From: an uncultured Nitrospiraceae bacterium
GTDB taxonomy: Bacteria; Nitrospirota; Nitrospiria; Nitrospirales; Nitrospiraceae
Assembly (NCBI GenBank): GCA_963846575.1
Contig: CAWJWJ010000002.1
Coordinates: 1,152,001 to 1,216,000, forward strand
Length of the DNA stretch: 64,000 nucleotides
Direction of reading: 5' to 3'
Below, piece after piece: positions 7,983 to 64,000 of the stretch. Below the pieces are notes generated by a model. It had not been told where the DNA came from. It did no database searches and worked only from the letters and a program-made list of their open reading frames with translations. Position 1 is the first letter of the stretch; the number at the start of each line of letters is the position of its first letter. The position numbers were made by a program, and so were the translations under genes.

Positions 7983-9503
7983 TCATACTACGGCTGTGTG
8001 ATGTTGGTGCAGGTCACGAATGTCCACTCTCAGACGCGTGCGGCCAGTCCGACAGTTGTCGCATCGTCCGCAGTCCCTGCTGATCTCGCGGGAGAAGTAT
8101 CTGGTCAGGAACCGCACGCGGCAGTCGGTGGTTTGTCCGTACTTCATCATGGCCGCAAGACGACTTTCGTCCTGCCGATGCCGTTGGTCGTACTCTTCGA
8201 GATACAGGGCAAACTCGGACTCGTCACGAAATGCGCGCCGGCAAAGAAACCGGCGGCCTGTCGGCTCCACAATTCCGGCCCGCTCCAGGAGGGCGAGAAT
8301 CACACGGAGGCGACGCGGCGCAATGCCGGTGGTCTTGTGCAGGGATGCGACCGATCGCGGGCCCTGGTGGTCTTGGAATGACGCATCCCCCTGCAACGCG
8401 TGATAGACGCGGGCGCATTCCGCCTGCCGCGGATACTTTCCTCGTAAAAAATATGCCTGCACCCGCCGGTCCTCCAGCCGATACATGAGCGCCGCGAGCG
8501 CCGGTTGACCGTCTCTTCCCGCCCGGCCTGCCTCCTGAACATAACTCTCCAGGGAGTCTGGAAAGGCGTAGTGAATGACGAATCGAAGATCGGGCTTGTC
8601 GATGCCTAATCCGAAAGCCTTTGTGGCGACGATGACCCGGTAGCGATCCCGCATGAAGGCTTGCTGCGTAGACCGGCGCTCAATCAGTGTCATCCTGCCG
8701 TGATACTGACCGGCGGGGAGGCCTGCCCGGACAAGGCGCGCATACAACTCATCGGCTTGTCGAATGGTGGCTACATAGACGATTCCCGTCGCGTCGCCCT
8801 GTTCCTTCACGATCTGCAGGAGGCGCGCGAACTTCTCCTCTTCGTTGGGCGTGGCATAGACCTCGTACCTGAGGCTGGGCCGGTCTATCCCGTGATTGAC
8901 CACGAGGGCGTCGGGAATAGCCAGTTGGGTCAGGATGTCGGAGACCACCGCCGGGGTGGCGGTGGCCGTCAGGGCCAGCACCGGTGGGTGATCCAAGCTG
9001 TGTATGGCGTCGCGGATAGCCAGATAGGCCGGTCGAAAATCGTGTCCCCACTGAGAAATGCAATGGGCCTCATCCACGACGACCAGCGAGACGCCGCTCT
9101 CTCGAAGGAGATTCACATAGTCGGGCTGCTCCAGGCGTTCCGGAGTGACGTAGATCATTTCCGGTAGTTGATGGGTGATATCCCGCAGACATTGCCGTTC
9201 CTCCGGTGCCGTCAGGGTGCTGTTGATCACGGCAACCGGGATCTGTCGTCCCCTGAGTTTGTCTTCCTGATCCTGCATCAAGGAGATCAACGGGGAGATG
9301 ACGAGGACGGCACGGGGCAGAAACAAAGAAGGCAGTTGAAAGCAGAGTGATTTCCCGCCGCCGGTCGGCAGGATGCCGACCGCATCACGTCCGCTCAGGA
9401 CGGCCTCAATCAGCCGGCGTTGACCGGGGCGATAGGTCCTGACGCCGAGCAGGCGTTGCGCTTTACGCTCGTTTGCCGGCGACCACTTCCAGGCGGCGTT
9501 CAT
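7983..9503 (-). CDS. recQ: RecQ-family ATP-dependent DNA helicase (no HRDC domain)
   Basis: PTGGGKSLCFQLP, VDEAHCISQWGHDFRP, ALTATAT, FGLGIDKPD, QEAGRAGRDG and C-terminal Zn motif CR...CGRCDNC. Confidence 0.92.
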   Translation of the reverse strand: MNAAWKWSPANERKAQRLLGVRTYRPGQRRLIEAVLSGRDAVGILPTGGGKSLCFQLPSLFLPRAVLVISPLISLMQDQEDKLRGRQIPVAVINSTLTAPEERQCLRDITHQLPEMIYVTPERLEQPDYVNLLRESGVSLVVVDEAHCISQWGHDFRPAYLAIRDAIHSLDHPPVLALTATATPAVVSDILTQLAIPDALVVNHGIDRPSLRYEVYATPNEEEKFARLLQIVKEQGDATGIVYVATIRQADELYARLVRAGLPAGQYHGRMTLIERRSTQQAFMRDRYRVIVATKAFGLGIDKPDLRFVIHYAFPDSLESYVQEAGRAGRDGQPALAALMYRLEDRRVQAYFLRGKYPRQAECARVYHALQGDASFQDHQGPRSVASLHKTTGIAPRRLRVILALLERAGIVEPTGRRFLCRRAFRDESEFALYLEEYDQRHRQDESRLAAMMKYGQTTDCRVRFLTRYFSREISRDCGRCDNCRTGRTRLRVDIRDLHQHHTAVV

Positions 9504-9534
9504 GCGCGTGGACGGTCGCCGGCTTCAGAACTTC

Positions 9535-10332
9535 TCATCGGGACGCCGATGCGGTCGATTCCATGGTCTCTTTGAATCGCTCCAGATCACTCGCAATCTT
9601 TCGGCCCGGGTCCTGTCCGAACAATCCGGCAATGGCTGCTCCGATAGGACCGGCGGGCGGGTCATATTGAAGGGTGACCGTGACCCTGCAGCTACGCCCC
9701 CCTTCGACCGGTTCGAAGTGCACGGATCCGGCATGACCCACCATCGCCCCCTGGAGGGTCCGCCACCCGATCCGCTCGTTCTCCACCTCGTTGATGATCT
9801 CCGCGTCCCATTCCACTGTGGGGGCCCCGGGGACCGTGTCGATCACCCAATGGGATTTGCGATCGTTGAGGGTCTTCACGCTCCGTACCTGGCTCATCAC
9901 GGTCGAAAGGTTCTCCAGGTTCCTCCAGAATGCATACAGATCCTTTGCCGGCCGGGCGATCACAATCGACTCCTCGATCTTGAGCGCGCGCCTGCTGTGT
10001 ATTTTCCTCCGTCCCAAGGAAGACGTGTCGGTCTTATCCCTGGTGCTGACGCCCATGCTGTGATAGGCCGGACAAAATCCGGTGAGCGCACGATACAGGA
10101 GGGTGACACCGAGCATGGCGCCCACTCCGGTGATCGGTGACAAGGGGCGTGTGACGGTCCGGAGCAACAGACCTCCCCCGACCAATCCGGAAATGACCCG
10201 TTCGGTTTCGCCCACGTTCGACTGCGCCTCGTCGCCCTGTTCGTTTTTCCATTCCTCGTTCCGCAAGTCTTGTCCGTTGTGTGCGGGTCTCGCCTTTGGC
10301 GTTGTCCTGATACCGCCGCGCATATGTGCCAT
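9535..10332 (-). CDS. SRPBCC/polyketide-cyclase-fold protein with N-terminal DUF2892 (YgaP-like) membrane segment
   Basis: NVGETER...LYRALTGFCPAY, then LYAFWRNLENL, SHW, EWDAEI, IGWR, YDPPAG, DLERFK. Confidence 0.85.
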   Translation of the reverse strand: MAHMRGGIRTTPKARPAHNGQDLRNEEWKNEQGDEAQSNVGETERVISGLVGGGLLLRTVTRPLSPITGVGAMLGVTLLYRALTGFCPAYHSMGVSTRDKTDTSSLGRRKIHSRRALKIEESIVIARPAKDLYAFWRNLENLSTVMSQVRSVKTLNDRKSHWVIDTVPGAPTVEWDAEIINEVENERIGWRTLQGAMVGHAGSVHFEPVEGGRSCRVTVTLQYDPPAGPIGAAIAGLFGQDPGRKIASDLERFKETMESTASASR

Positions 10333-10445
10333 AGCTCCTCCTGATTTCGGCCAGGTTGTGAATGTCTCGAGAAGGTATCCGGGAGCCCCCTGGAACGGTG
10401 CGTTGCTCTCCGGGGTCCAGCCCTGCTTTTCCGCAACATCAGAGG

Positions 10446-10461
10446 TGCAAGTGTGGGGCCA
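10446..10461 (-). promoter_or_regulatory. Candidate sigma54 -24/-12 promoter of SRPBCC-recQ
   Basis: Minus strand TGGCCCCACACTTGCA (GG-N10-GC). Confidence 0.6.
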
Positions 10462-10567
10462 TCGTCACCCTCATGGGACAGGACGAGAGCCCGTTCAATC
10501 CAGCCGTAAATCGCGGGATGTTCCGGCTGCTGCCGGATTCAGACAGTGAGAAGAGCCGGACCGGCAG

Positions 10568-10597
10568 GACCGATTGTCTTACGCGGGACAAATTGTC
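10568..10597. promoter_or_regulatory. Candidate enhancer (bEBP UAS) between divergent sigma54 promoters
   Basis: GACCGATTGTC-TTACGCGG-GACAAATTGTC: a TGT-N10-ACA palindrome with overlapping GACA-N3-TGTC. Confidence 0.5.
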
Positions 10598-10665
10598 TGA
10601 GGGGCTCCGGCAGAGTTCCATCCGTAAGTCTTGGTGACTGATGCACTTTTCGTAGACCATGCGAC

Positions 10666-10681
10666 TGGTTGATCCTTTGCA
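10666..10681 (+). promoter_or_regulatory. Candidate sigma54 -24/-12 promoter of the cupin gene
   Basis: TGGTTGATCCTTTGCA (GG-N10-GC), 60 nt upstream of the ATG at 10742. Confidence 0.55.
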
Positions 10682-10741
10682 TACGCCACGACAGACAAGA
10701 GAGCGGTGTGCCCAACTCTACGTCAGCTCAGGAGGTCCCTC

Positions 10742-11086
10742 ATGGCAGATAAGAGCGTCAAGAAGGTTACGTCGGACTATTCGCCGAACGGCAGGATGGG
10801 ACAGAAGTATCTTGCTTCAGGCATCAACGTCTCGATGCGGCTGTGGGAATCTTTGCCTCCCGCGCCGCCGACGCCGCAAAAGAAGCGGGACTATGAGGTC
10901 GTCGGGTATGTCATTCAGGGACGGGCCAAGCTGGAGCTCGAAGGGCAGACCATCCTGCTGGAGCCGGGGGATTCCTGGGTCGTTCCCCAACAGGCGACTC
11001 ACCGTTATGAAATCCTCGAACCATTCACCGCGGTCGAGGCGACGACCCCTCCGGCCCAGGTGCACGGGCGGGACGAAGGAGACTGA
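10742..11086 (+). CDS. Cupin-domain protein
   Basis: AGGAGG RBS. Motifs GQKYLASG..VSMRLW, YEVVGYVIQGRA.L.LEG, LEPGDSWVVP...HRY. Confidence 0.85.
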   Translation: MADKSVKKVTSDYSPNGRMGQKYLASGINVSMRLWESLPPAPPTPQKKRDYEVVGYVIQGRAKLELEGQTILLEPGDSWVVPQQATHRYEILEPFTAVEATTPPAQVHGRDEGD

Positions 11087-52874: not shown

Positions 52875-52895
52875 TATTGAGTATGGTTCTCAATA
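52875..52895. promoter_or_regulatory. Fur-box-like palindrome
   Basis: TATTGAG-TATGGTT-CTCAATA, resembling TTGAGAATnATTCTCAA Fur-box variants. Confidence 0.65.
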
Positions 52896-53350: not shown

Positions 53351-56300
53351 ATGTGCACAATGTTGAGACAACCACCTTCCGGCAAGCGTCACACCGTGAT
53401 CGATATTCTTCGCGCGCGGGACTCCTCGACCCCCGCGCGCAGAGCCTATACGTATTTGCGTGATGGAGAGACCGACGAACAATGGCTTGACTATCACGAA
53501 CTGGACCGCCGCGCCCGGGGGATCGCGGCCTGGTTGCAATCCTATGGGGCCGCCGGCGAACGCGCCCTCCTGTTGTATCCTCCCGGTCTGGACTACCTTG
53601 CGGCCTTTTTCGGCTGCCTCTATGCCGGAGTGATTGCAGTGCCGGCCTATCCCCCCCAACGGGAACGGGGCATGCCTCGCGTGCTGTCCATACTCCAGGA
53701 TTCACGGGCTGCCTATGCGTTGACCACCCACTCCATCCATCAGGCCATCGGAAGGCTCTCGCCGCGCGACGGTGGACTCGAGCAGCTTGCCGGGCTGCGG
53801 TGGCTGACTACCGATACCGGCGAACCCGGCGCCGAAGACTCCTGGCAGCACCCCGACATCGACGCGGATACCCTGGCATTCCTCCAATACACATCCGGCT
53901 CGACCGGCCAGCCGAAGGGCGTCATGGTCAGCCATGCCAACCTGTTGCATAACCAGCGAATGATTCAGGACGCTTTCGGCCATACGGAACGGGACTGCAT
54001 CGTGGGGTGGTTGCCCCTCTACCATGATATGGGGCTGATCGGGAATGTGCTGCAGCCGCTGTTCCTCGGTGTCCCTTGCGTGCTCATGTCGCCGATACAT
54101 GTCCTGCAAAAGCCGGTGCGTTGGCTGTCCGCGATTTCGCGGTACCGTGCGACCACCAGCGGGGGGCCCAATTTCGCCTTCGATCTCTGCGTGCGCCAGA
54201 TCACGCCCTCACAGCGGGCTTCGTTGGATTTGAGTAGCTGGACGGTGGCGTTTAACGGAGCAGAGCCTGTTCGAGCCGGCACCATCGAACAATTCGCTCG
54301 AACGTTTGCCGGGTGTGGATTCAGGCGGGAGGCGTTTTATCCCTGTTACGGACTGGCCGAGGCAACCCTCCTGGTCGCTGGTGGGACCGCCAACGCTCCA
54401 CCCGTGACGCGAGAGTTCGATCAGTCAGGTCTCAATCTCCATGCCGGGACACAACCGATGGGGACGGGTCATCCCACGCCGGTGCTCGTAGGTTCCGGTG
54501 TCGCCCGGCTCGAACAACTGATTCGCATTGTCCGTCCGGAATCAAGCACCTCCTGCCCGGATGGTCAGGTCGGAGAGATCTGGGTCAGCGGGCCGAGTGT
54601 CGCGCAGGGGTATTGGGGACAGGAACTGGAAACGTGCGCAACCTTTATGGCCAGGCTTGCCGATACCGGAGAGGGCCCGTTTTTACGCACGGGGGATCTG
54701 GGGTTCGTGCACGAAGGCGAACTGTTCGTCACCGGCCGGTTGAAAGATCTCATCATCATTCGTGGGCGCAACCACTATCCGCAGGACATCGAACGTACCG
54801 TGGAGGACAGCCATCCGGCGCTCAGGCCCGGCGGGGGAGCGGCCTTTTCCGTCGTGGAAAGGGACGAGGAACAGTTGGTTGTAGTCCAGGAGATCGAACT
54901 CCGTGCCCGGAACATCAACCATGACGCGATCATGGCTGACATTCGCCGGGCCGTGACGAGACAGCATGAAGTGCCGGTCTTTGCCGTCGTCCTCATCAAG
55001 GCGGGGCATCTGCCCAAGACGTCCAGTGGAAAGGTCCAGCGAAGCCTCTGCCGCACCAGATTCCTCGAACAGGCCTTCGAGGTGATCGGGCAGGCCCTTG
55101 CCCCCGCACCATTACAGGCCGGCGACCTCAGCACATCATTCGAGGCGGTCAGGCGAGGCGGGGTGGCATCGGAAAGGAATCTTGACCAGCTCGTCACGGA
55201 GATCTGGGCGGGGGTATTGAATCAACCGAACATCGGACCACAAGACGATTTCTTCGCGCTGGGCGGCGATTCGCTACGCGGCACGCAGGTGCTGGCCCGC
55301 CTGCGTGAGGAGGGCCGGATCGAGGTGCCCTTGGAGACGCTGTTCGATTTTCCGACTCTGGCGGACTTCGTCAGCCACATCGGGACCAGGACGCCCGCTG
55401 CTCCTGCCGAGGACGGCGTCGCGATGCGGCCCGCTCGGCCGGAGGATCCACAGCCGCTCTCGCGGACTCAGGAGCGCTTCTGGTTTCTCGAGCAACTCTC
55501 ACCTGGCACTCCCGTCAACAATGTTCCCGTCGCGCTGAGGCTGCAGGGGCGACTCGATGTCGAGACCCTTCGCCGTTCCCTGCAGGAAATTTTACGGCGC
55601 CATGACATCCTCCGGGCCCGGTGCATACTCCGTGACGGTCGACCGGCACAGATCATCGCGCCGACTCTCGACCTTTCTCTGGCCGTCGAGGAGTTGATCC
55701 CGATAGGCGAAACGGATCCGGAGCGCCAGCTCCGGCAGGCACTCGATCAAGAGGCGGTCCAGCCGTTCGATCTGATGACGGGGCCTTTGCTCCGGCTCCG
55801 TCTATTCCGGATGGCGGACTGGGATCATGTCTTGTCGCTGACGCTGCATCACATCGTGACAGACGGCTGGTCGATGGGAATCGTCAGTCGCGAGTTGGCC
55901 GCGCTGTACGAGGCCTTTGTGAACCGCCGTGTATCTCCGCTTCCCCCTCTTCCCATCCAGTATCTCGACGTGGTGGCGGGTGAGCGCGAGGATCACCGGG
56001 AAGCGCTCTACAGAAGGCAGATCGAATATTGGCGACAGCGTCTGGAGGATGTTCCCGCCCTATTGAGGCTGCCATACGATCGGGCGCGGCCGGAGGTGCA
56101 GAACTATCGTGGGGCGCGTCACCGCTGGACGGTGGAGGCGGCGCTCGTGCGCAGGCTGCAGAACATCGGGCATCAGCAGCGGGCGACGTTGTTCATGACG
56201 CTGTTGGCGGCCTTCGACGTGCTCTTATCCCGCTACAGCGGCCAGGCGGACTTCTGCGTGGGCACGCCGGTGGCCAATCGAAACCGGATGGACTGGGAGC

Positions 56301-59110
56301 CGCTGGTCGGCTGCTTCGTCAACACCGTCGCTCTTCGTGCCGATCTGTCGGGCAATCCTTCCTTCACCGCCTTCCTCGCGCAAGTCCGGGCGACCGTACT
56401 GGGCGCACAGGCCCATCAGGAGGTTCCGTTTGAACGGGTCGTCGATGACCTACGGGTCGCGCGAGACCTGGGGCATACGCCGCTTTTTCAAGTGATGTTC
56501 CTGTTGGAGGACCGTCTCTCGGACCTGCCATCGTTCGGATCTCTATCGACCGGCAGGATGGAGGTGAACACCCGGACCTCGGTGTTCGATCTCACCGTGG
56601 AAATGGTCCTCGGTGCCGACGGCGGCCTGACCGCGGTGTTTGAATACAGTATCGAGTTGTTCGATCGCGACAGGATCGTGCGCCTCGCCGGACACTTTCA
56701 TACGCTGCTGAATGAAATCGCCACCGCCCCGGAGTCGCGGATTGGCGATCTGACGCTGCTCACGGCGCATGAAACCCGTCAGGTTCTCGTTGAGTGCAAC
56801 AACACCCGCGCGTCCTATCCGGAAGAGTCATGCCTGCATCAATTGATGGAGGACAGGGTGTCCCGGACCCCGGACGCCGTGGCCCTGTCCTGCGAGGGGC
56901 GGTCCTATACCTACGCCGAGCTCAATCGCAGGTCGAATCAACTCGCGCGCTATCTCCGTGCGCACAAGGCCGGTCCGGAAACTCCGGTCGCCCTCTGCGT
57001 CGAACGATCGCTCGAGATGGTGGTCGGCCTATGGGCCACTCTCAAGGCCGGTGCGGCCTATGTGCCCATCGATCCTGCCTATCCACGATCCCGACAGGTC
57101 GCGATTCTCGAGGACGTGCAACCGAAATTGGTCCTGACGCAACAGCAGTTCGCGAATGATCTGTCACGAAGCGGCGCTCCCGTTTGTGCGATGGACTCCG
57201 GATGGGCCGCGGCAGCCGGGTATCCTGACGGCAATCTGCCCAACCTTTCCCGTCCCGATAATCTGGCCTACCTCCTGTACACCTCGGGAACGACCGGGCA
57301 ACCCAAGGGGACCGGCATTTCGCACCGCGCACTGGTCAACCACAGCATTGCCATCGCGGCACGGTATGGTCTTGTCCCGACCGATCGGGTGCTCCAATTC
57401 GCTTCGGTCAGTTTCGACGTCGCGGCGGAGGAATGTTTTCCGTCATGGCTCGCGGGGGCGACGGTGGTGGTGCGGCCCAATGCGCCTCTGCCGGCATTTT
57501 CTGATTTTCACGCCTTTCTCCGCGAGCAGCGGCTCACGGTCCTGAACCTGCCGACGCCTTACTGGGCCGGATGGGTGGACGAGATCGACAGGACCGGCCT
57601 GGCGATCCCGGCGGAGCTCAGGCTGATCGTGGTGGGGAGCGAAAAGGCCTTGCCTGAGAGCGTCATGAGGTGGCAGCGGGTTGCGGGGCCCCAGATCGGG
57701 TGGTGCAATTCGTATGGACCGACGGAAGCCACCATCACCGCGAGTTGTTATGTCCCGGAGCCGGACATGGATTGGACTCGCGCCCTCACTGTCCCGATCG
57801 GCCGGCCGATCGCGAATGTTGAACTCTACCTGCTGGATTCCCATCTCCGGCCCGTTCCCCTGGGAGTGCCGGGAGAACTCTATATCGGCGGAGCCGGCCT
57901 CGCTCGCGGGTACCATCGGTTGCCGGCGTTGACCGCCGGGAGATTCGTTCCCCATCCGTTCAGTTCACGTCCGGGAGAGCGCTTGTATCGAACCGGGGAC
58001 CGCGCCCGCCGACGGCCGGAGGGTGAGGTCGAGTTTCTGGGCCGCGTCGACGAGCAGGTGAAGGTTCGCGGCCATCGTATTGAACTCGGGGACATCGAGT
58101 GCCATGCGCGCCAACATCCGGACGTGAAGGAGTGCCGGGTGTTCCTGGAAGAGGGCGCTCTCCCGGAGTGGGCTGCACTCCTCAGCGGCGTGAGCCTGCA
58201 GGACCAGGAACGGATGCTCCGGGACGTCGAAAGCGTGACGGCGGCGGAGGCCCAATGGCTTCACCGAGTGGAATCGGATGCGGAGGAACGGAGGAAGACG
58301 GTGATTCAGAGAAAACCGGAGTTCGATGTGTACCTGAAAATTCATCACGGGGAGTTTGTGACTCCGCCGAAACAGAATCAGCGCAATTGGCTGCTGCGGC
58401 GGGCCCTCGACGAATTTTCAGATGATCTCGTGGCGCTCGACGCGATCTCAAAACGGTTGGTTTCCGGCTCCGAGCGGGTGGGCATCGAACAGGGGTGGAC
58501 GGGGAGCAGGGCCGATTATACACCGACCGAGCTCATCATCGAAGGACAGCAGGTGATGCAGGATTGGGAAGCGCCGTTGATGAAGGCGATGGCTGACATC
58601 GCCACCGAATCCCAGGGCGACGTGCTCGAGGTCGGATTCGGAATGGGCATCTCGGCCTCCTACATTCAGGCTGGACGACCGCGTTCCCACACCATCATTG
58701 AGTGCAACCAGGATGTCATGCAGGCGTTCGTCGCATGGTCCGCCGGATACCCCGATCGCGACATCCGGCTCGTCCAGGGCCGTTGGCAGGATGTGGTCGA
58801 TGGACTGGGCCGGTTCGACAGCGTGTTTTTCGATACCTACCCGGCCAGTGAAGCTGAATTCGAAGAATCGGTCATCAACAGTATCAACTTTGCCGAAGCG
58901 TTTGTGCCTGCTGCCGCCGGATTGCTGCGTCCGGGCGGGGTGTTTACGTATTACACGAATGAAATCGACTCCTTCAGCAGGCGGCATCAACGATTCCTGT
59001 TCCAACACTTCAGCTCCTTCACCCTCAGCATCGTGCGATCACTGCTACCGCCGGATGATTGCCACTATTGGTGGGCCGATTCGATGGCGGTGGTCAAGGC
59101 GGTGAAATGA
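53351..59110 (+). CDS. NRPS: FAAL - ACP - C - A(core, A1-A8) - GAMT/RMT2-like methyltransferase
   Basis: FLQYTSGSTGQPKGV (FAAL), FFALGGDSL (ACP), HHIVTDGWS (C), YTSGTTGQPKG, YGPTE, YRTGD, GRVDEQVKVRGHRIELG (A), then VMQDWE..LM...VLEVGFGMGIS...HTIIEC...FFDTYP (MT). Confidence 0.93.
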   Translation: MCTMLRQPPSGKRHTVIDILRARDSSTPARRAYTYLRDGETDEQWLDYHELDRRARGIAAWLQSYGAAGERALLLYPPGLDYLAAFFGCLYAGVIAVPAYPPQRERGMPRVLSILQDSRAAYALTTHSIHQAIGRLSPRDGGLEQLAGLRWLTTDTGEPGAEDSWQHPDIDADTLAFLQYTSGSTGQPKGVMVSHANLLHNQRMIQDAFGHTERDCIVGWLPLYHDMGLIGNVLQPLFLGVPCVLMSPIHVLQKPVRWLSAISRYRATTSGGPNFAFDLCVRQITPSQRASLDLSSWTVAFNGAEPVRAGTIEQFARTFAGCGFRREAFYPCYGLAEATLLVAGGTANAPPVTREFDQSGLNLHAGTQPMGTGHPTPVLVGSGVARLEQLIRIVRPESSTSCPDGQVGEIWVSGPSVAQGYWGQELETCATFMARLADTGEGPFLRTGDLGFVHEGELFVTGRLKDLIIIRGRNHYPQDIERTVEDSHPALRPGGGAAFSVVERDEEQLVVVQEIELRARNINHDAIMADIRRAVTRQHEVPVFAVVLIKAGHLPKTSSGKVQRSLCRTRFLEQAFEVIGQALAPAPLQAGDLSTSFEAVRRGGVASERNLDQLVTEIWAGVLNQPNIGPQDDFFALGGDSLRGTQVLARLREEGRIEVPLETLFDFPTLADFVSHIGTRTPAAPAEDGVAMRPARPEDPQPLSRTQERFWFLEQLSPGTPVNNVPVALRLQGRLDVETLRRSLQEILRRHDILRARCILRDGRPAQIIAPTLDLSLAVEELIPIGETDPERQLRQALDQEAVQPFDLMTGPLLRLRLFRMADWDHVLSLTLHHIVTDGWSMGIVSRELAALYEAFVNRRVSPLPPLPIQYLDVVAGEREDHREALYRRQIEYWRQRLEDVPALLRLPYDRARPEVQNYRGARHRWTVEAALVRRLQNIGHQQRATLFMTLLAAFDVLLSRYSGQADFCVGTPVANRNRMDWEPLVGCFVNTVALRADLSGNPSFTAFLAQVRATVLGAQAHQEVPFERVVDDLRVARDLGHTPLFQVMFLLEDRLSDLPSFGSLSTGRMEVNTRTSVFDLTVEMVLGADGGLTAVFEYSIELFDRDRIVRLAGHFHTLLNEIATAPESRIGDLTLLTAHETRQVLVECNNTRASYPEESCLHQLMEDRVSRTPDAVALSCEGRSYTYAELNRRSNQLARYLRAHKAGPETPVALCVERSLEMVVGLWATLKAGAAYVPIDPAYPRSRQVAILEDVQPKLVLTQQQFANDLSRSGAPVCAMDSGWAAAAGYPDGNLPNLSRPDNLAYLLYTSGTTGQPKGTGISHRALVNHSIAIAARYGLVPTDRVLQFASVSFDVAAEECFPSWLAGATVVVRPNAPLPAFSDFHAFLREQRLTVLNLPTPYWAGWVDEIDRTGLAIPAELRLIVVGSEKALPESVMRWQRVAGPQIGWCNSYGPTEATITASCYVPEPDMDWTRALTVPIGRPIANVELYLLDSHLRPVPLGVPGELYIGGAGLARGYHRLPALTAGRFVPHPFSSRPGERLYRTGDRARRRPEGEVEFLGRVDEQVKVRGHRIELGDIECHARQHPDVKECRVFLEEGALPEWAALLSGVSLQDQERMLRDVESVTAAEAQWLHRVESDAEERRKTVIQRKPEFDVYLKIHHGEFVTPPKQNQRNWLLRRALDEFSDDLVALDAISKRLVSGSERVGIEQGWTGSRADYTPTELIIEGQQVMQDWEAPLMKAMADIATESQGDVLEVGFGMGISASYIQAGRPRSHTIIECNQDVMQAFVAWSAGYPDRDIRLVQGRWQDVVDGLGRFDSVFFDTYPASEAEFEESVINSINFAEAFVPAAAGLLRPGGVFTYYTNEIDSFSRRHQRFLFQHFSSFTLSIVRSLLPPDDCHYWWADSMAVVKAVK

Positions 59111-59111
59111 C

Positions 59112-59762
59112 ATGGCGACCATTCTTGAACGCATCGACCGGCTTTCCGAGGCCCAACGCGCCTTGCTCCGGCTCCGGCTGGGAGGGACAGAACGGGCGAC
59201 GGCGGGCGAATCGCGCCTGGTCGGGTACATCGTCCCGCGCGGGGAGCGGAGGGACCTCGCTCCTGACCTGCGTGAATTTCTCCGCGAGCGTCTTCCGGAT
59301 TACATGGTGCCCGGTGCCTGGATCGTCATCGACTCGTTCCCCATGACCTCCCGGGGGAAGGTGGATCGAGCCGCCTTGCAGGGGATGGCCCGGTCGGCCT
59401 GGCCCGCGGAGTCCCGCGGAGGAGTCCCTCGAAACGATTGCGAGCGGGCCATTGCGGACATCTGGAAAGAGGTGCTCGGCCTGCCCGTCATGGGGCTGCA
59501 AGACAACTTTTTCGATTTGGGGGGCCACTCCCTGCTGCTGCCGAAAGTCCTCGCCAGGGTGCGCGAGCTGGCGCAGCGGGAGGTTTCGATGGTGGATCTG
59601 TTCCGCTATCCGACGGTGCAGGCACTTGCCGCCTATGTGGCGGGTGAATCGCGACCCGTCGAGGAGGGCGACAGCGGTGATCACGCGAAGGGCAAGCGGG
59701 AGGCCGGGATCCGCCGGATGACACAACGGCGGCGGAGACAGGCGGCGTTGAGGAGCGAATGA
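59112..59762 (+). CDS. Stand-alone A-subdomain (A9-A10) + PCP protein
   Basis: RLVGYIV, LPDYMVP (A9), PMTSRGKVDR (A10 Lys), DNFFDLGGHSLL (PCP Ser) and an Arg-rich C-terminal tail. Confidence 0.9.
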   Translation: MATILERIDRLSEAQRALLRLRLGGTERATAGESRLVGYIVPRGERRDLAPDLREFLRERLPDYMVPGAWIVIDSFPMTSRGKVDRAALQGMARSAWPAESRGGVPRNDCERAIADIWKEVLGLPVMGLQDNFFDLGGHSLLLPKVLARVRELAQREVSMVDLFRYPTVQALAAYVAGESRPVEEGDSGDHAKGKREAGIRRMTQRRRRQAALRSE

Positions 59763-62700
59763 CGAACACAGCGGAACAGGGTGACGGGAGTCAGGCCGGT
59801 GGAGGGTTGGACATCGCCGTAGTCGGGATGGCCGGGCGGTTTCCCGGCGCGCGGAATCTGGAGTCGTTCTGGCAGAACCTCCGGGACGGCATCGAGTCGG
59901 TCTCCACGCTCAGCCGGGAAGACCTGCTGGAGTCCGGGGTGGATGAGCAGGTCCTCGATCGGCCGAATTATGTGAGGGCCCGGGCGTTGCTCGATGACGT
60001 GGATCTTTTTGACGCCAGGTTGTTCAACATGACCCCGAACGAAGCCGCCAGCATGGATCCGCAGCAACGTCTGTTGCTTGAGTGTGCCTGGGAGACGCTC
60101 GAGCAGGCGGGTTATGACCCGGAGCAGTACGGCGGGACGATCGGCGTTTATGCGGGATCGAGCAGTAGCGGCTATCTATTCAACCTGTTTCCCCGCCGGA
60201 CGCTTCTCCAGTCGGCAGCCGACATGTCGGCGATGCTGGGGGTGGAAAAGGATGCCCTCTCGACGCGCGTCTCGTACAAATTGAATCTGGAAGGGCCGAG
60301 TCTGGCCGTGCAAACGGCCTGCTCGACGTCCCTGGTCGCAGTCCATCTGGCCTGCCAGGGCCTCTTGAGCGGTGAGTGCGACATGGCCTTGGCAGGCGGC
60401 GTGTCGGTCACGGTGCCGCAGAAAGTCGGCTATCTCTACCAGGAGGGCGGCATCGTCTCGCCGGATGGTCATTGCCGCGCCTTTGATGCCGACGCTCAAG
60501 GAACCGTCGGAGGAAGCGGCGTCGGACTCGTCCTGCTGAAGCGACGGCAGGAAGCGGAAGCCGACGGCGATCAGGTGCTGGCCATCATCAAGGGCTCCGC
60601 CATCAATAACGACGGCGCGGCAAAGGTCGGCTATACGGCTCCCCGGATCGAAGGGCAGGCCAAGGTCATCAAGGCCGCGCATCTGGCGGCCGGTGTGACG
60701 CCGGAATCGATCTCCTATGTGGAGGCCCATGGGACAGGGACTCCGATGGGCGATCCCATTGAAGTCGCGGCCTTGACGCAGGCCTTTCGGGCCTCCACGG
60801 ACCGCAGCGGTTTTTGTGCGCTCGGCTCCGTGAAGACGAATATCGGTCATCTGGATGCCGCCGCCGGAATTGCCGGACTCATCAAGACCATCCTGGCACT
60901 CTCCCACCGGCAGATCCCGGCCAGTTTGCATTACGTGCGATCGAATCCCGCGATCGATTTTGCACAGACTCCGTTTTATGTGAATGCGGCACTGAAGGCA
61001 TGGCCACGCGGTGATAACCTGCGACGGGCCGGCGTCAGTTCGTTCGGATTGGGCGGAACGAACGCGCATGTGGTGCTCGAAGAAGCCTCTCCTGCCGGCA
61101 GGGCTCAGTCCCCGGCGCGGGATTCCGGCTCTCAGCTCCTGGTGTTGTCTGCAGGGTCGGAGAGGGCCTTGAGCCAAGCGACGGACCGTCTCGCCGCGCA
61201 TCTTGGCAACCATCCGGATCTTTCCCTGGCCGACGTCGCGCACACGCTTCAGGCGGGCCGCAAAGCACTTCCCTACAGGCGGTGGGTGGTGGCAACCCGG
61301 ACGGCTCAGGCCGCGGAGTTGCTTGCCCGGCCGGGGCTTGCGGGTGCCACGTCCGGCCCTGTCGGCGGCGGGCGGCGGGCGGCGTTCATGTTTTCCGGAC
61401 AGGGCGCGCAATATCCGGGCATGGGGCAGGCGCTGTATGCGGAGCAGTCGGTGTTCCGCGAGCAGGTGGATCTGTGCGCCTCTCTGTTGCAGCGACAACT
61501 GGGGCGTGACATCCGGTCGATTCTCTTCGCGAACCGCCCGGAGGACCAGGACCTCATTCACCAAACGGTGCTGACTCAGCCGGCGTTGTTCGTCTTTGAG
61601 TATGCTCTTGCCCGGCTGTGGATGAGCTGGGGAGTTATCCCCTGCGCCATGATCGGACATAGCCTGGGGGAATACGTAGCCGCTTGTTTGTCAGGAGTCT
61701 TTTCCCTGGAAGACGCGTTGGCGGTCGTGGCTCGGCGGGGGCGGCTCATGCAGGACACGGTTCCGGGAACCATGCTGGCCGTTCCACTCGCCGAGTCGGA
61801 AGTAGCGCCGTTCCTTCGCGCGGGAGTCGACCTCGCGGCAGTGAATGCTCCCGCCCAATGCGTGTTGTCCGGCCATGAGGAGTCCCTCGCCGCGCTGGAT
61901 CAGGAGTTGACGGCCCGGGGCATCAAGAGCCGTCGGCTGCGGACATCGCACGCGTTTCATTCCTCCACGATGGATTCCGTGTTGAAACCGTTTGAATCGT
62001 TTCTTGCCGGCCTCACGATGCATCCCCCTCGAATCCCCTGGGTTTCAAATGTGACCGCCGGGTGGATTCACCGTGATCAGGCGGTGGACCCGCGCTACTG
62101 GGCACGTCATCTGCGCTCGACGGTCCGGTTTTCGGATGGCATCAAGACCCTGCTGGAGCAGGGCGGGCCGATCCTGCTCGAAGTCGGACCAGGCCGCACG
62201 TTGCAGCACCTGGCCCGGCGGCACGCGGGGCAGACCGGACTGTCCGCGGTGGCCTCCTTGAATGGAGCCGGACCGGCCAGCTCCGGGCAGCCTGAGATGT
62301 CCGCCCTGCTGACGACGCTCGGATCACTCTGGGGAGCCGGTGTCTGCCCCGATTGGAACGGTTTGTACGCGGGAGAACCGCGCCGCCGGGTGCCGCTTCC
62401 GACCTATCCGTTCGAACGGCAGCGTTATTGGGTGGAACCTGATTCATCTCATGCAGGCCGGAAGACGGAGCGGTCCGACAGACGCCTCGACATGTCGAGA
62501 TGGGCCTATCAGCCCTCATGGAAGCGATCAGTGTTAGGGGGAGGCAGCCACGCCCGTCCGCAGGAACAGTGGCTTGTCTTCGTGGAGGAACCGCGCGTCG
62601 GGATGGCCTTGGTGAATCACCTGAATACGCTGGGGCACCAGGTCACGACCGTGCTGGCGGGACAGGCCTTCGAACGGCGCGACGGCGATACCTACCTCGT

Positions 62701-64000
62701 TCGCGCCGATTCTCGGGAAGACCATGATCGGCTCCTGCGGGATCTGAAGACGCGGGGACGGCTACCCTCCAACATCGTGCAGGCCTGGACGATCGGCGAA
62801 GAAACTCCAGCCGCCCCTGCGACGGTGCAATTCAACGGGGCTCAAGAAAAAGGATTTTTTCATCTGCTGCTTCTTGCACAGGTGTTCGGACGGCGGCGCG
62901 GAGAAGGGTGTTCGATCCTGGTGCTGTCTCAGGGCCTTCACGATGTCACCGGTCGTGAGCGGTTGCGCCCGGAACAGGCGACTCTGCTGGCGGCCTGCCG
63001 TGTGATTCCCCAGGAATACCCCCGCCTGACCTGCCGCCTGCTCGACCTCGACGACCACGACGTCGCGCACACCCTCTCGGAGGCATCCTGCCACCGGCTG
63101 ACGGCTGAGGTCGGTGCTCCGGCAGGCGAGGCAATCGTCGCCTATCGGGGACCGCACCGCTGGGTGCAGACATTCGAACCACTGCCTCTGCCGGAAGGGA
63201 AACCCATGTCCGGCCTGTTGCGAGAAGGAGGCGTTTATCTGATCACGGGAGGGCTTGGCGGGGTCGGACTCGCCCTGGCGGACTACCTGATCCGCACCCT
63301 GCAGGCCCGCGTCATTCTGACCAGCCGGTCGCTGCCGAATGGTGAGCAACAAGAGGTGCTAGCCGGGCTCGAACGACTGGGCGGGAAGGTCTTGCCGCTT
63401 CAAGCCGATGTCGCCGATCTCCCTCAGATGCGTGCGGCGATTGCGGAAGCCGGGCAACGATTCGGGTCCATCCATGGGGTATTCCATGCCGCTGCGGTTG
63501 CCGGCGGCGGCCTCATTGATCGAACCACTCCGGAATCCGTCCGGGATGAATTCCGTCCGAAGGTCGCGGGGGCCTTGGTGCTGGAAGAGGCGCTACGGGA
63601 GGCCCCTCCGGAGTTCGTGCTGTTCTGTTCCTCGTTGACGGCCGTGGTGGGTGGGATCGGGCAGGTCGCCTCTTGCGCGGCCAATGCTTTCCTGGACGCC
63701 ATGGCGCATGCCAGCACGAGCGCACGCATGCCTGTCCTGTCGGTGAATTTCGACCGTTGGTCTCAGGTCGGCATGGCGGTGCAGGCCGAGGCTCGCATGA
63801 AGGCCCTGGGATTGAGCGACGAGGCGTTGGATGGGATGAGCCGTCGGGAGGGACAGGACGTTGTCCATCGGATCCTTCAGGGAGCGGCCCTGCCGCAGGT
63901 CGTGGTCTCCATTCGAGAGTTGTCGACCGTTGCGACCTCGGTCACTCAACTGGCCTTGGCTCAATTTCACGGGCCTGATCAGACGGCGGGACACGATGTG
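59759..64000 (+). CDS. Type I PKS module KS-AT-KR (hybrid NRPS/PKS-type KS), 3'-truncated by the window; not listed in the ORF track
   Basis: ATG overlaps the previous stop. DIAVVGMAGRFPGA, DPQQRL, VQTACSTSL, EAHGTGT, KTNIGHL, GQGAQY, GHSLG, SHAFHS (malonyl-type AT), ITGGLGGVG; KR active site GQVASCAAN is in the same frame. Confidence 0.92.
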   Translation, partial: MTNTAEQGDGSQAGGGLDIAVVGMAGRFPGARNLESFWQNLRDGIESVSTLSREDLLESGVDEQVLDRPNYVRARALLDDVDLFDARLFNMTPNEAASMDPQQRLLLECAWETLEQAGYDPEQYGGTIGVYAGSSSSGYLFNLFPRRTLLQSAADMSAMLGVEKDALSTRVSYKLNLEGPSLAVQTACSTSLVAVHLACQGLLSGECDMALAGGVSVTVPQKVGYLYQEGGIVSPDGHCRAFDADAQGTVGGSGVGLVLLKRRQEAEADGDQVLAIIKGSAINNDGAAKVGYTAPRIEGQAKVIKAAHLAAGVTPESISYVEAHGTGTPMGDPIEVAALTQAFRASTDRSGFCALGSVKTNIGHLDAAAGIAGLIKTILALSHRQIPASLHYVRSNPAIDFAQTPFYVNAALKAWPRGDNLRRAGVSSFGLGGTNAHVVLEEASPAGRAQSPARDSGSQLLVLSAGSERALSQATDRLAAHLGNHPDLSLADVAHTLQAGRKALPYRRWVVATRTAQAAELLARPGLAGATSGPVGGGRRAAFMFSGQGAQYPGMGQALYAEQSVFREQVDLCASLLQRQLGRDIRSILFANRPEDQDLIHQTVLTQPALFVFEYALARLWMSWGVIPCAMIGHSLGEYVAACLSGVFSLEDALAVVARRGRLMQDTVPGTMLAVPLAESEVAPFLRAGVDLAAVNAPAQCVLSGHEESLAALDQELTARGIKSRRLRTSHAFHSSTMDSVLKPFESFLAGLTMHPPRIPWVSNVTAGWIHRDQAVDPRYWARHLRSTVRFSDGIKTLLEQGGPILLEVGPGRTLQHLARRHAGQTGLSAVASLNGAGPASSGQPEMSALLTTLGSLWGAGVCPDWNGLYAGEPRRRVPLPTYPFERQRYWVEPDSSHAGRKTERSDRRLDMSRWAYQPSWKRSVLGGGSHARPQEQWLVFVEEPRVGMALVNHLNTLGHQVTTVLAGQAFERRDGDTYLVRADSREDHDRLLRDLKTRGRLPSNIVQAWTIGEETPAAPATVQFNGAQEKGFFHLLLLAQVFGRRRGEGCSILVLSQGLHDVTGRERLRPEQATLLAACRVIPQEYPRLTCRLLDLDDHDVAHTLSEASCHRLTAEVGAPAGEAIVAYRGPHRWVQTFEPLPLPEGKPMSGLLREGGVYLITGGLGGVGLALADYLIRTLQARVILTSRSLPNGEQQEVLAGLERLGGKVLPLQADVADLPQMRAAIAEAGQRFGSIHGVFHAAAVAGGGLIDRTTPESVRDEFRPKVAGALVLEEALREAPPEFVLFCSSLTAVVGGIGQVASCAANAFLDAMAHASTSARMPVLSVNFDRWSQVGMAVQAEARMKALGLSDEALDGMSRREGQDVVHRILQGAALPQVVVSIRELSTVATSVTQLALAQFHGPDQTAGHDV

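Follow-up and report, generated by a model that had tools for sequence, protein, structure and literature searches.

A conserved two-chain NRPS module with a GAMT-like methyltransferase within its split adenylation domain

Introduction

How can an NRPS module work if its adenylation (A) domain is divided by a stop codon between two genes? The question is raised by a locus in the window, as the 64,000-nucleotide stretch of DNA analyzed here will be called. The window is part of a 4.2 Mb genome whose nearest named homologs are Nitrospira. An earlier note on this DNA described an A domain that runs through motif A8, an acidic segment, a methyltransferase and a stop at 59110, with A9, A10 and the carrier domain (PCP) on the next gene; all of these elements were found at the places it had given. 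The GAMT-like nature of the methyltransferase is absent from that note.

Layout of the split module

The large open reading frame, 53351-59110, encodes 1919 residues and the small one, 59112-59762, encodes 216 residues. A single base lies between them (TGA C ATG). The features of the module are as follows.

53351..59110, forward strand: large NRPS protein, FAAL-ACP-C-A (core and first A-sub part)-acidic helices-GAMT-like methyltransferase-stop
53411..55090, forward strand: fatty acyl-AMP ligase-type starter, the first AMP-binding domain, with a DIP2-like C-terminal part (PF00501, PF23024)
55190..55381, forward strand: carrier domain 1 (ACP; PF00550, residues 614-677)
55445..56785, forward strand: Condensation domain with the HHIVTDG motif intact
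56831..58147, forward strand: adenylation core to A8, with the first A-sub helix and strand; code DVENVGSITK (Arg-like)
58040..58090, forward strand: motif A8, GRVDEQVKVRGHRIELG
58160..58285, forward strand: acidic helical segment, net charge -6, putative C-side docking element
58286..59107, forward strand: GAMT-like SAM methyltransferase with a beta-beta-alpha N-terminal extension
59096..59104, forward strand: SD-like AAGGCGGTG, inside the last methyltransferase codons and 7 nt ahead of the ATG of the small gene
59108-59110, forward strand: stop of the large ORF
59112..59762, forward strand: small protein, consisting of a basic helix, the second A-sub half and a PCP
59112..59183, forward strand: N-terminal helix R-x-x-x-L-S-x-x-Q-R-x-L-L-x-L-R-L, putative N-side docking element
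59214..59381, forward strand: second A-sub half, including the LVGYIVP strand
59292-59312, forward strand: A9, LPDYMVP, within the second A-sub half
59352-59369, forward strand: A10, RGKVDR, with the catalytic Lys83 at 59358-59360
59448..59639, forward strand: PCP of the split module, its Ser in GGHSL (motif at 59520-59534)
59759..64000, forward strand: next assembly-line gene, a KS-AT-KR-ACP PKS, which runs on to 64327 past the window

The first domain we take to be a FAAL from its architecture. Pfam matches in the large ORF are two AMP-binding domains, PP-binding and Condensation, with AMP-binding_C not among them, whereas the small ORF has a partial AMP-binding_C (profile positions 25-76) and PP-binding. 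This is in keeping with the division that the earlier note had proposed. Motifs A3, A5, A7, A8, A9 and the A10 Lys are all intact.

Intact A-sub segments are available from three further modules of the cluster. The first 51-54 residues of these segments align to the large ORF, and residue 57 onward aligns to the small ORF. The two halves are therefore complementary and do not overlap, and by this alignment the two genes together tile one intact A domain. The cut is positioned in the loop between strands VKECRVFL and RLVGYIVP. The methyltransferase, which had been placed between A8 and A9, does follow A8, but the cut lies one β-strand ahead of the usual a8-a9 insertion point, so that the LVGYIVP strand belongs to the small protein.

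Conservation of the split

The split into two chains is genuine and conserved. The methyltransferase is present in 16 of 39 genomes of the genus, and the split point read from one locus recurs in 15 of the 16 genus loci tested (the window's and those of 14 other genomes) as a stop, one nucleotide and a start; the sixteenth (L080) was missed by the search pattern. The SD-like AAGGCGGTG is identical in all 15 junctions. A frame fused across 59110-59112 was sought in both reads and homologs. A Logan soil contig covering 59065-59315 spans the junction without a gap and with a single difference (depth 2, contigs only); the junction is bridged in one of the four soil runs compared and unbridged in the other three. 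In the genome collection, the methyltransferase is in frame with A-sub or PCP in none of 71 related loci.

Because the genus shares the junction and the soil contig bridges it, the split is not an assembly error. The view that a sequencing or assembly error, or a recent pseudogenising stop, created it could draw on another NRPS gene of the cluster, outside the window, that shows an apparent frameshift. However, the same junction in 14 other genomes of the genus, the bridging contig and the occurrence of the split in many phyla make this view practically inconceivable.

A script sorted the 71 loci into 36 two-piece, 7 three-piece (A core / methyltransferase / A-sub-PCP), 3 A-MT without a called partner, 4 with the upstream part unresolved and 21 free-standing or other; by eye, L054 and L060 look three-piece too. 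The loci without a called partner are L020, where the partner holds a second enzyme, and L069 and L070, which are at contig ends. The record titles name Nitrospirota, Acidobacteriota, a Nostoc, a Thermodesulfobacteriota bin, a Kofleriaceae bin, Massilia and actinomycetes, and the split is conserved in at least seven phyla. In the actinobacterial three-piece copies L057, L059, L062, L063 and L068 the A10 Lys is missing and A8 is decayed; splitting can therefore end in a dead A domain.

Larger protein sets give the same picture. The family comprises 281 representatives (E up to 1e-30, 50% clustering), not all of them NRPS-linked. In 83 of the best 150 of 2383 representatives, A8 lies a short way ahead of the methyltransferase, and every one of these 83 terminates at most 20 residues past the enzyme. 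Of 198 long homologs, the best 120 divide as follows: 115 stop at most 10 residues past the methyltransferase and 2 within 14; of the rest, one continues into a transposase fragment and two are fused. A partner protein of 209-223 residues occurs in 50 further 90%-clusters among the best 120 matches. Three candidate fusions were set aside: P0232 because its reading continues into the transposase fragment, and P0329 and P0354, apparent single-enzyme fusions, as probable frameshift artefacts in which the conserved C-terminal motif is lost just ahead of the join.

The one-base gap could also mean that a single chain is made by a +1 frameshift at the stop, since a shift past one base would bring the small ORF into frame, and in each of the 15 genus junctions the gap measures precisely one base. 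Nevertheless, the codon ahead of the stop, the stop itself and the gap base all vary (AAG/AAA, TGA/TAG and C/G/T, respectively), and outside the genus the gap ranges from -4 to +157 nt. Furthermore, the small gene has its own SD-like site 7 nt ahead of its ATG, and genuine fused forms need a second methyltransferase. A programmed frameshift is thus extremely improbable.

The methyltransferase

Neither Pfam nor NCBIfam has a family for the methyltransferase region, although its homologs bear a precomputed PF27704 label. When the PDB was searched by sequence, GAMT alone was matched (four sequences, best E 9e-27). The AlphaFold model (pLDDT 89, pTM 0.88) has GAMT in all of the top five Foldseek positions. 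Glu1740 and Asp1828 align to Glu45 and Asp134 of GAMT and are invariant in 29 of 29 aligned rows. Glu45 presumably has a catalytic role. Asp134 is the catalytic base according to the available text of PMC12471008. By sequence and by model, the methyltransferase of the window is GAMT-like and of the side-chain guanidine type.

The fold, the SAM motif and the equivalents of Glu45 and Asp134 are common to it and to GAMT (PDB 1xcj, 3orh). GAMT and BlsL are free-standing, whereas the enzyme of the window, 274 residues long, is fused to an NRPS and has an extra β-β-α N-terminal extension of about 60 residues. BlsL is a GAMT-like enzyme that methylates the N-delta of Arg (PMC5572114), and the likeness of the window's methyltransferase to it is drawn from its description there.

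Substrate and pathway

The code of the A domain, read by motif, is DVENVGSITK, and its best single-domain match in the PDB is ApnA A1. In the available text of PMC5311044, Arg is among the substrates loaded with the ApnA A1 codes DVEDIGAIEK and DVESIGAIAK. DVENVGSITK fits the Arg consensus, as given in the available part of PMC12283262, at 8 of 10 positions; it departs from it at two, and Lys and Orn codes are similar. The signature codes looked for in the supplement of that paper were not found there.

The code varies together with the active site of the methyltransferase. The comparison covers the 90 of the best 150 representatives that are long enough for a code to be read, the other 60 being dropped. 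At the two GAMT positions, A domains with Arg-like codes are accompanied by E/D in 26 cases and Q/D in 6 (32 of 32), and those with His-like codes (DSAxxxEV-type) by Q/H in 54 and H/Q in 4 (58 of 58). Asp at the Asp134 position accordingly occurs with 32 of 32 Arg-like and 0 of 58 His-like codes. The DSAxxxEV-type code is read as His in the available part of PMC12283262. In the tree the co-variation falls largely on one clade split, and it counts for this reason as one strong hint, not 90, that the methyltransferase may act on the side chain loaded by its own module. The likely role of the enzyme, judged from its sequence and by analogy, would be arginine N-delta-methylation in a siderophore.

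It might be argued that the A domain is inactive, that its PCP is loaded by another A domain and that the methyltransferase is a tailoring passenger. Some actinobacterial relatives with decayed A8 and A10 indeed adjoin a second A domain. In the window, however, A3, A5, A7, A8, A9 and the A10 Lys are intact, the Arg-like code is kept in all Nitrospira homologs scored, and no spare Arg-type A domain was found in the cluster. An inactive A domain is very improbable here.

Downstream of the module, besides the KS-AT-KR-ACP PKS, there are genes for an ABC exporter, a thioesterase, a class III aminotransferase, a penicillin-amidase-type acylase and two TauD enzymes, as well as four NRPS genes that add another eight A domains. 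Upstream are divergent AraC, TonB, ECF sigma, FecR, TonB-dependent receptor and Fur genes. Outside the window, one of the other NRPS genes of the cluster has an apparent frameshift. By its gene content the cluster fits a lipopeptide siderophore that would begin with fatty acyl-(N-methyl)Arg-ketide. A hydroxy-His, its His read from the code, is among the predicted product units, and code reading presumably adds Ser, Dab, hydroxy-Asp and Gly.

Fused homologs and a possible reason for the split

The two clean fused homologs among the best 120 of 198 long ones, P0122 and P0123, both carry tandem methyltransferases, in the order A8-short acidic helix-MT-MT-basic helix-A-sub-PCP-C. The expectation that homologs would be split holds in so far as there is no clean fusion with a single methyltransferase; it does not hold without exception, for 2 of 120 are fused and have the enzyme doubled. 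Because fusion comes only with the doubled enzyme, these proteins leave the split of the window unrefuted. Their sequences show, as far as the order of parts can, that the helices form a single functional unit with the two halves of A-sub. Two other proteins, P0156 and P0157, have a decayed and an intact methyltransferase copy at their end.

The tandem pair of P0122 was predicted as one packed unit of 557 residues with a pTM of 0.90, in a control-free model with a short linker between the copies and only 2 of 33 rows covering the second copy. The packed tandem copies of the fused forms suggest that the methyltransferase works as a dimer. The chances are about even that the module is split because a dimeric methyltransferase cannot be threaded into a domain as a single insert. 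A single copy would then be unable to return the chain to the A-sub, and either the module would have to be cut or the enzyme doubled.

Helices at the cut

The acidic helices at the end of the A-sub half in the large protein have a mean charge of -7.5, and the basic helix that opens the small protein has one of +2.3 (31 aligned rows each). Both are amphipathic and conserved, and their charges are opposite. By eye, both are present in 34 of the 36 two-piece loci, in several phyla, and both are retained in the fused homologs P0122 and P0123. They are not obligatory, because L021 is split without either of them and in L044 they are reduced; P0324 is also without helices.

The earlier note had regarded the helices as a docking pair of the kind found in multi-protein NRPSs. 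Profiles of the two helices match three C-termini and three N-termini of ordinary NRPS subunits in the loci; these matches are to non-training sequences, at 12-19 bits and E of 1e-4 to 2e-2 in small databases. The N-helix profile also matches four N-termini of C-A-MT proteins, at scores in the same range, and 64 of its 65 matches, most of which are partner homologs, begin at most 45 residues from the N-terminus. In its own genome the profiles find the two training sites only, leaving the docking-like ends of the other NRPSs of the cluster unmatched. Against the PDB, at E up to 10, these short helices, for which such a search has low power, gave no solved docking domain but only matches at chance level or to designed repeats. 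The resemblance to ordinary subunit-end docking elements is supported by the profile matches, and this part of the proposal stands. The mutual binding is a different matter. Co-folding of the two helices alone gave a score of 0.34 compared to 0.01 for the best control, which is graded as weak support and comes without an interface. At least 88% of contacts are shared between the runs, and the partner pLDDT is at least 65. Of 157 solved pairs, 116 attain the mark applied, and of 215 mismatched pairs, 2 do; the part of the scale at 0.60 or under, however, holds only 18 of these solved pairs together with both mismatches. Taken with their charge and conservation, the co-fold makes it fairly probable that the two helices dock on each other.

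Alternatively, the halves may be functional but joined mainly through complementation of the A-sub sheet and contacts with the PCP, as is presumably the case in Crz1/Crz2, the helices being relics of an earlier boundary between subunits or spacers for the methyltransferase. Crz2, the small protein of the split corallorazine system, has A9 and A10 within its residues 1-65, and docking is unmentioned in the paper that describes it (PMC11342130). The helices are missing in L021 and P0324, their co-fold reaches just 0.34, and they persist in P0122 and P0123, where docking is needless. Such an arrangement is nevertheless unlikely, given that 34 of 36 two-piece loci, from different phyla, have both helices, that the pattern of the helices is amphipathic and conserved and their charge opposite, and that both are lost jointly in L021.

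Proposed mechanism

The reading that we prefer, and hold to be likely on the grounds of sequence and analogy, is a genuine two-chain NRPS module, kept by selection, in which the large and the small protein would rebuild the A domain with the aid of docked helices for Arg N-delta-methylation, the split serving a dimer. The large protein would load a fatty acid, its A core would bind Arg and ATP, and its C-terminus would carry the GAMT-like methyltransferase. The rest of the A-sub lid, including its catalytic Lys, would come from the small protein, as would the PCP. The A-sub sheet would be rebuilt in trans by both halves, whose complementarity is read from the sequence and whose function is presumed from Crz1/Crz2. 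Most likely, the acidic and basic helices, which extend the two cut strands, hold the halves together. The PCP would present Arg or acyl-Arg, the methyltransferase would methylate the guanidine N-delta, and the product would then pass to the PKS module, the next on a line that makes a lipopeptide siderophore.

A wider and more doubtful proposal, which we put forward tentatively, is that the family is a so far undescribed class of side-chain N-methyltransferases embedded in NRPSs of several phyla, with one branch for Arg N-delta and one for His imidazole, whose dimers force a chain break at a new site in A-sub, with docking helices taken over from subunit ends rebuilding the catalytic lid in trans. 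If it were true, the one-, two- and three-piece forms would be steps of one design, and the cut site in A-sub would be a natural place to plug in parts when NRPSs are engineered. The split point is tolerated and would bring its own clasp, which might be of use in engineering NRPS lines. Products of such modules are mispredicted because annotation tools read them as a broken A domain and an orphan carrier protein. Peptides with N-delta-methyl-Arg or N-methyl-His are predicted instead; one of them would be a siderophore made by a group of nitrifiers that is widespread (16 of 39 genomes in the genus).

Comparison with known systems

The idea of docking helices can be compared with PaxA/PaxB (7B2B; PMC8251938) and PaxB/PaxC (6TRP; PMC9113145), where, in the available descriptions, an acidic helix pair faces a basic kinked N-terminal helix. 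The likeness is one of charge and shape only, and neither split-site profile matches the chains of 7B2B or 6TRP at E up to 10. The Pax docking domains are described as joining T to C domains at chain ends, unlike the acidic element here, which is internal and lies inside the A domain.

On the side of the substrate, module 3 of corramycin is, in the available text of PMC10099666, His-activating, with an N-methyltransferase proposed for the side chain, which fits the His-type branch found here. Compared by its description, this module may belong to the same methyltransferase family. When 401 genomes from the phylum of L021 were searched for loci like that of corramycin, the known locus and two weaker free-standing matches were all that came up, and the FAAL-FkbH architecture was not found among the long His-type proteins.

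Corallorazine Crz1/Crz2 from Corallococcus coralloides B035 is the closest precedent. Its split A-MT domain was shown biochemically to be active solely when the two proteins are mixed, in work from 2024 (PMC11342130). The assembly of a split A domain in trans is thus not a new idea, and the earlier note, in calling the architecture unusual, overstated its novelty. Its main proposal, that the A domain is assembled in trans, gains by analogy from the same precedent and from the presence of the split in at least seven phyla. The layout is shared: in Crz1/Crz2, as in the window, the A domain runs to A8 and is followed by a methyltransferase and a stop, with A9, A10 and T opening the next gene (PMC11342130). 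The differences, taken from the description of Crz1/Crz2, are several. The Crz enzyme is a type I backbone N-methyltransferase, according to the legend of Fig. S3 (PMC11342130), whereas the enzyme here is GAMT-like; it has no type I motifs, and its 274 residues compare to 390 +/- 21 for that type in the available source. Residues 1-65 of Crz2 complete the Crz A domain, and the main text has 0 occurrences of the word 'docking' (PMC11342130); the small protein here opens with a helix, carries the LVGY strand and has its A10 Lys at residue 83. The substrate in this family, in contrast to Crz, is of Arg or His type.

The interrupted A domains classified by Lundy (families 1-7, M types I-VI; PMC8341866, available text) likewise have a class I SAM methyltransferase after A8. 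They are described there as one chain with the insertion after the L(V/A/I)(A/G)(Y/F) strand (PMC8341866), while the cut here precedes this strand, which is on the small protein. The A-M-A arrangement in one polypeptide (Lundy families 1, 2 and 5) is not what is found here, with the stop at 59108-59110 and 0 of 71 loci fused. Both sites are used in L020, which has a type I enzyme in its second chain. When 16 motif patterns of types I-V from the available text of PMC8341866 were run on the methyltransferase, the generic SAM motif alone was matched, and 'arginine' and 'guanidinoacetate' have 0 occurrences in the available main text of that paper. A literature search, covering mostly sources other than subscription journals, found no paper on a GAMT-like split family. 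The present family would add to the 2020 classification, as far as its available text goes, a methyltransferase type and a cut site that it lacks. The split GAMT-like family is set apart from the Crz and Lundy types by its enzyme class, its cut site, its flanking helices and its side-chain substrate.

Candidate regulatory elements near the split module

Two candidate regulatory elements lie upstream of the gene for the large NRPS protein, at the following window positions:

52876-52894: imperfect palindrome of 19 bp, ATTGAG-N7-CTCAAT
52919-52892, minus strand: sigma70-type site preceding the AraC-TonB-ECF-FecR-receptor genes

The two elements overlap. The palindrome resembles a Fur box.

Related loci and sequence quality

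The split module's relatives in actinobacteria have a three-piece form (L052, L056, L059, L062-L064 and L068, as well as L054, L057 and L060), in which the methyltransferase is encoded by a separate gene that overlaps the stop codon of the A-core gene. Several of these copies have lost both the A10 lysine and A8. A gene that looks TauD/VioC-like by eye is found upstream in L052, L057 and L064.

Locus L003, which is 81% identical, is of the Nitrospira type, whereas its record is titled Nitrosospira; mislabeling, mis-binning or transfer could each account for this. In the cluster itself (L072), an apparent frameshift is seen past the window's end, near position 1229750 of the contig (window-equivalent ~77750). 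It sits in the second A domain of the third NRPS gene from the start and appears to be either an error or a sign of a broken gene.

Methyltransferases in other settings

Some methyltransferase homologs are free-standing. At L048:7971-11082, in a Microcoleus contig, the copy is followed directly by a gene that is YcaO/cyanobactin-like by eye, which suggests a ribosomal peptide as its target. In L047 and L049 a large type I PKS gene comes directly after the free-standing copy, a placement that would be expected for a methyl-guanidino starter unit.

Other homologs belong to NRPSs. In P0337, P0346, P0348 and P0339 a methyltransferase of the branch paired with His-like A-domain codes has been added behind a thioesterase; one of these clusters bears the name Roseobacter. 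A weak QueC-like insert occupies the A8-A9 interval of another A domain in P0346, P0348, P0319 and P0308. In L005 (8947-14190, 1748 residues) the small protein and the downstream PKS are fused, with the cut in the A domain retained. In L020 the second chain (8970-10838) carries its own type I N-methyltransferase, placed after the LVAY strand, so that a single A domain contains two methyltransferases at two sites together with a chain break.
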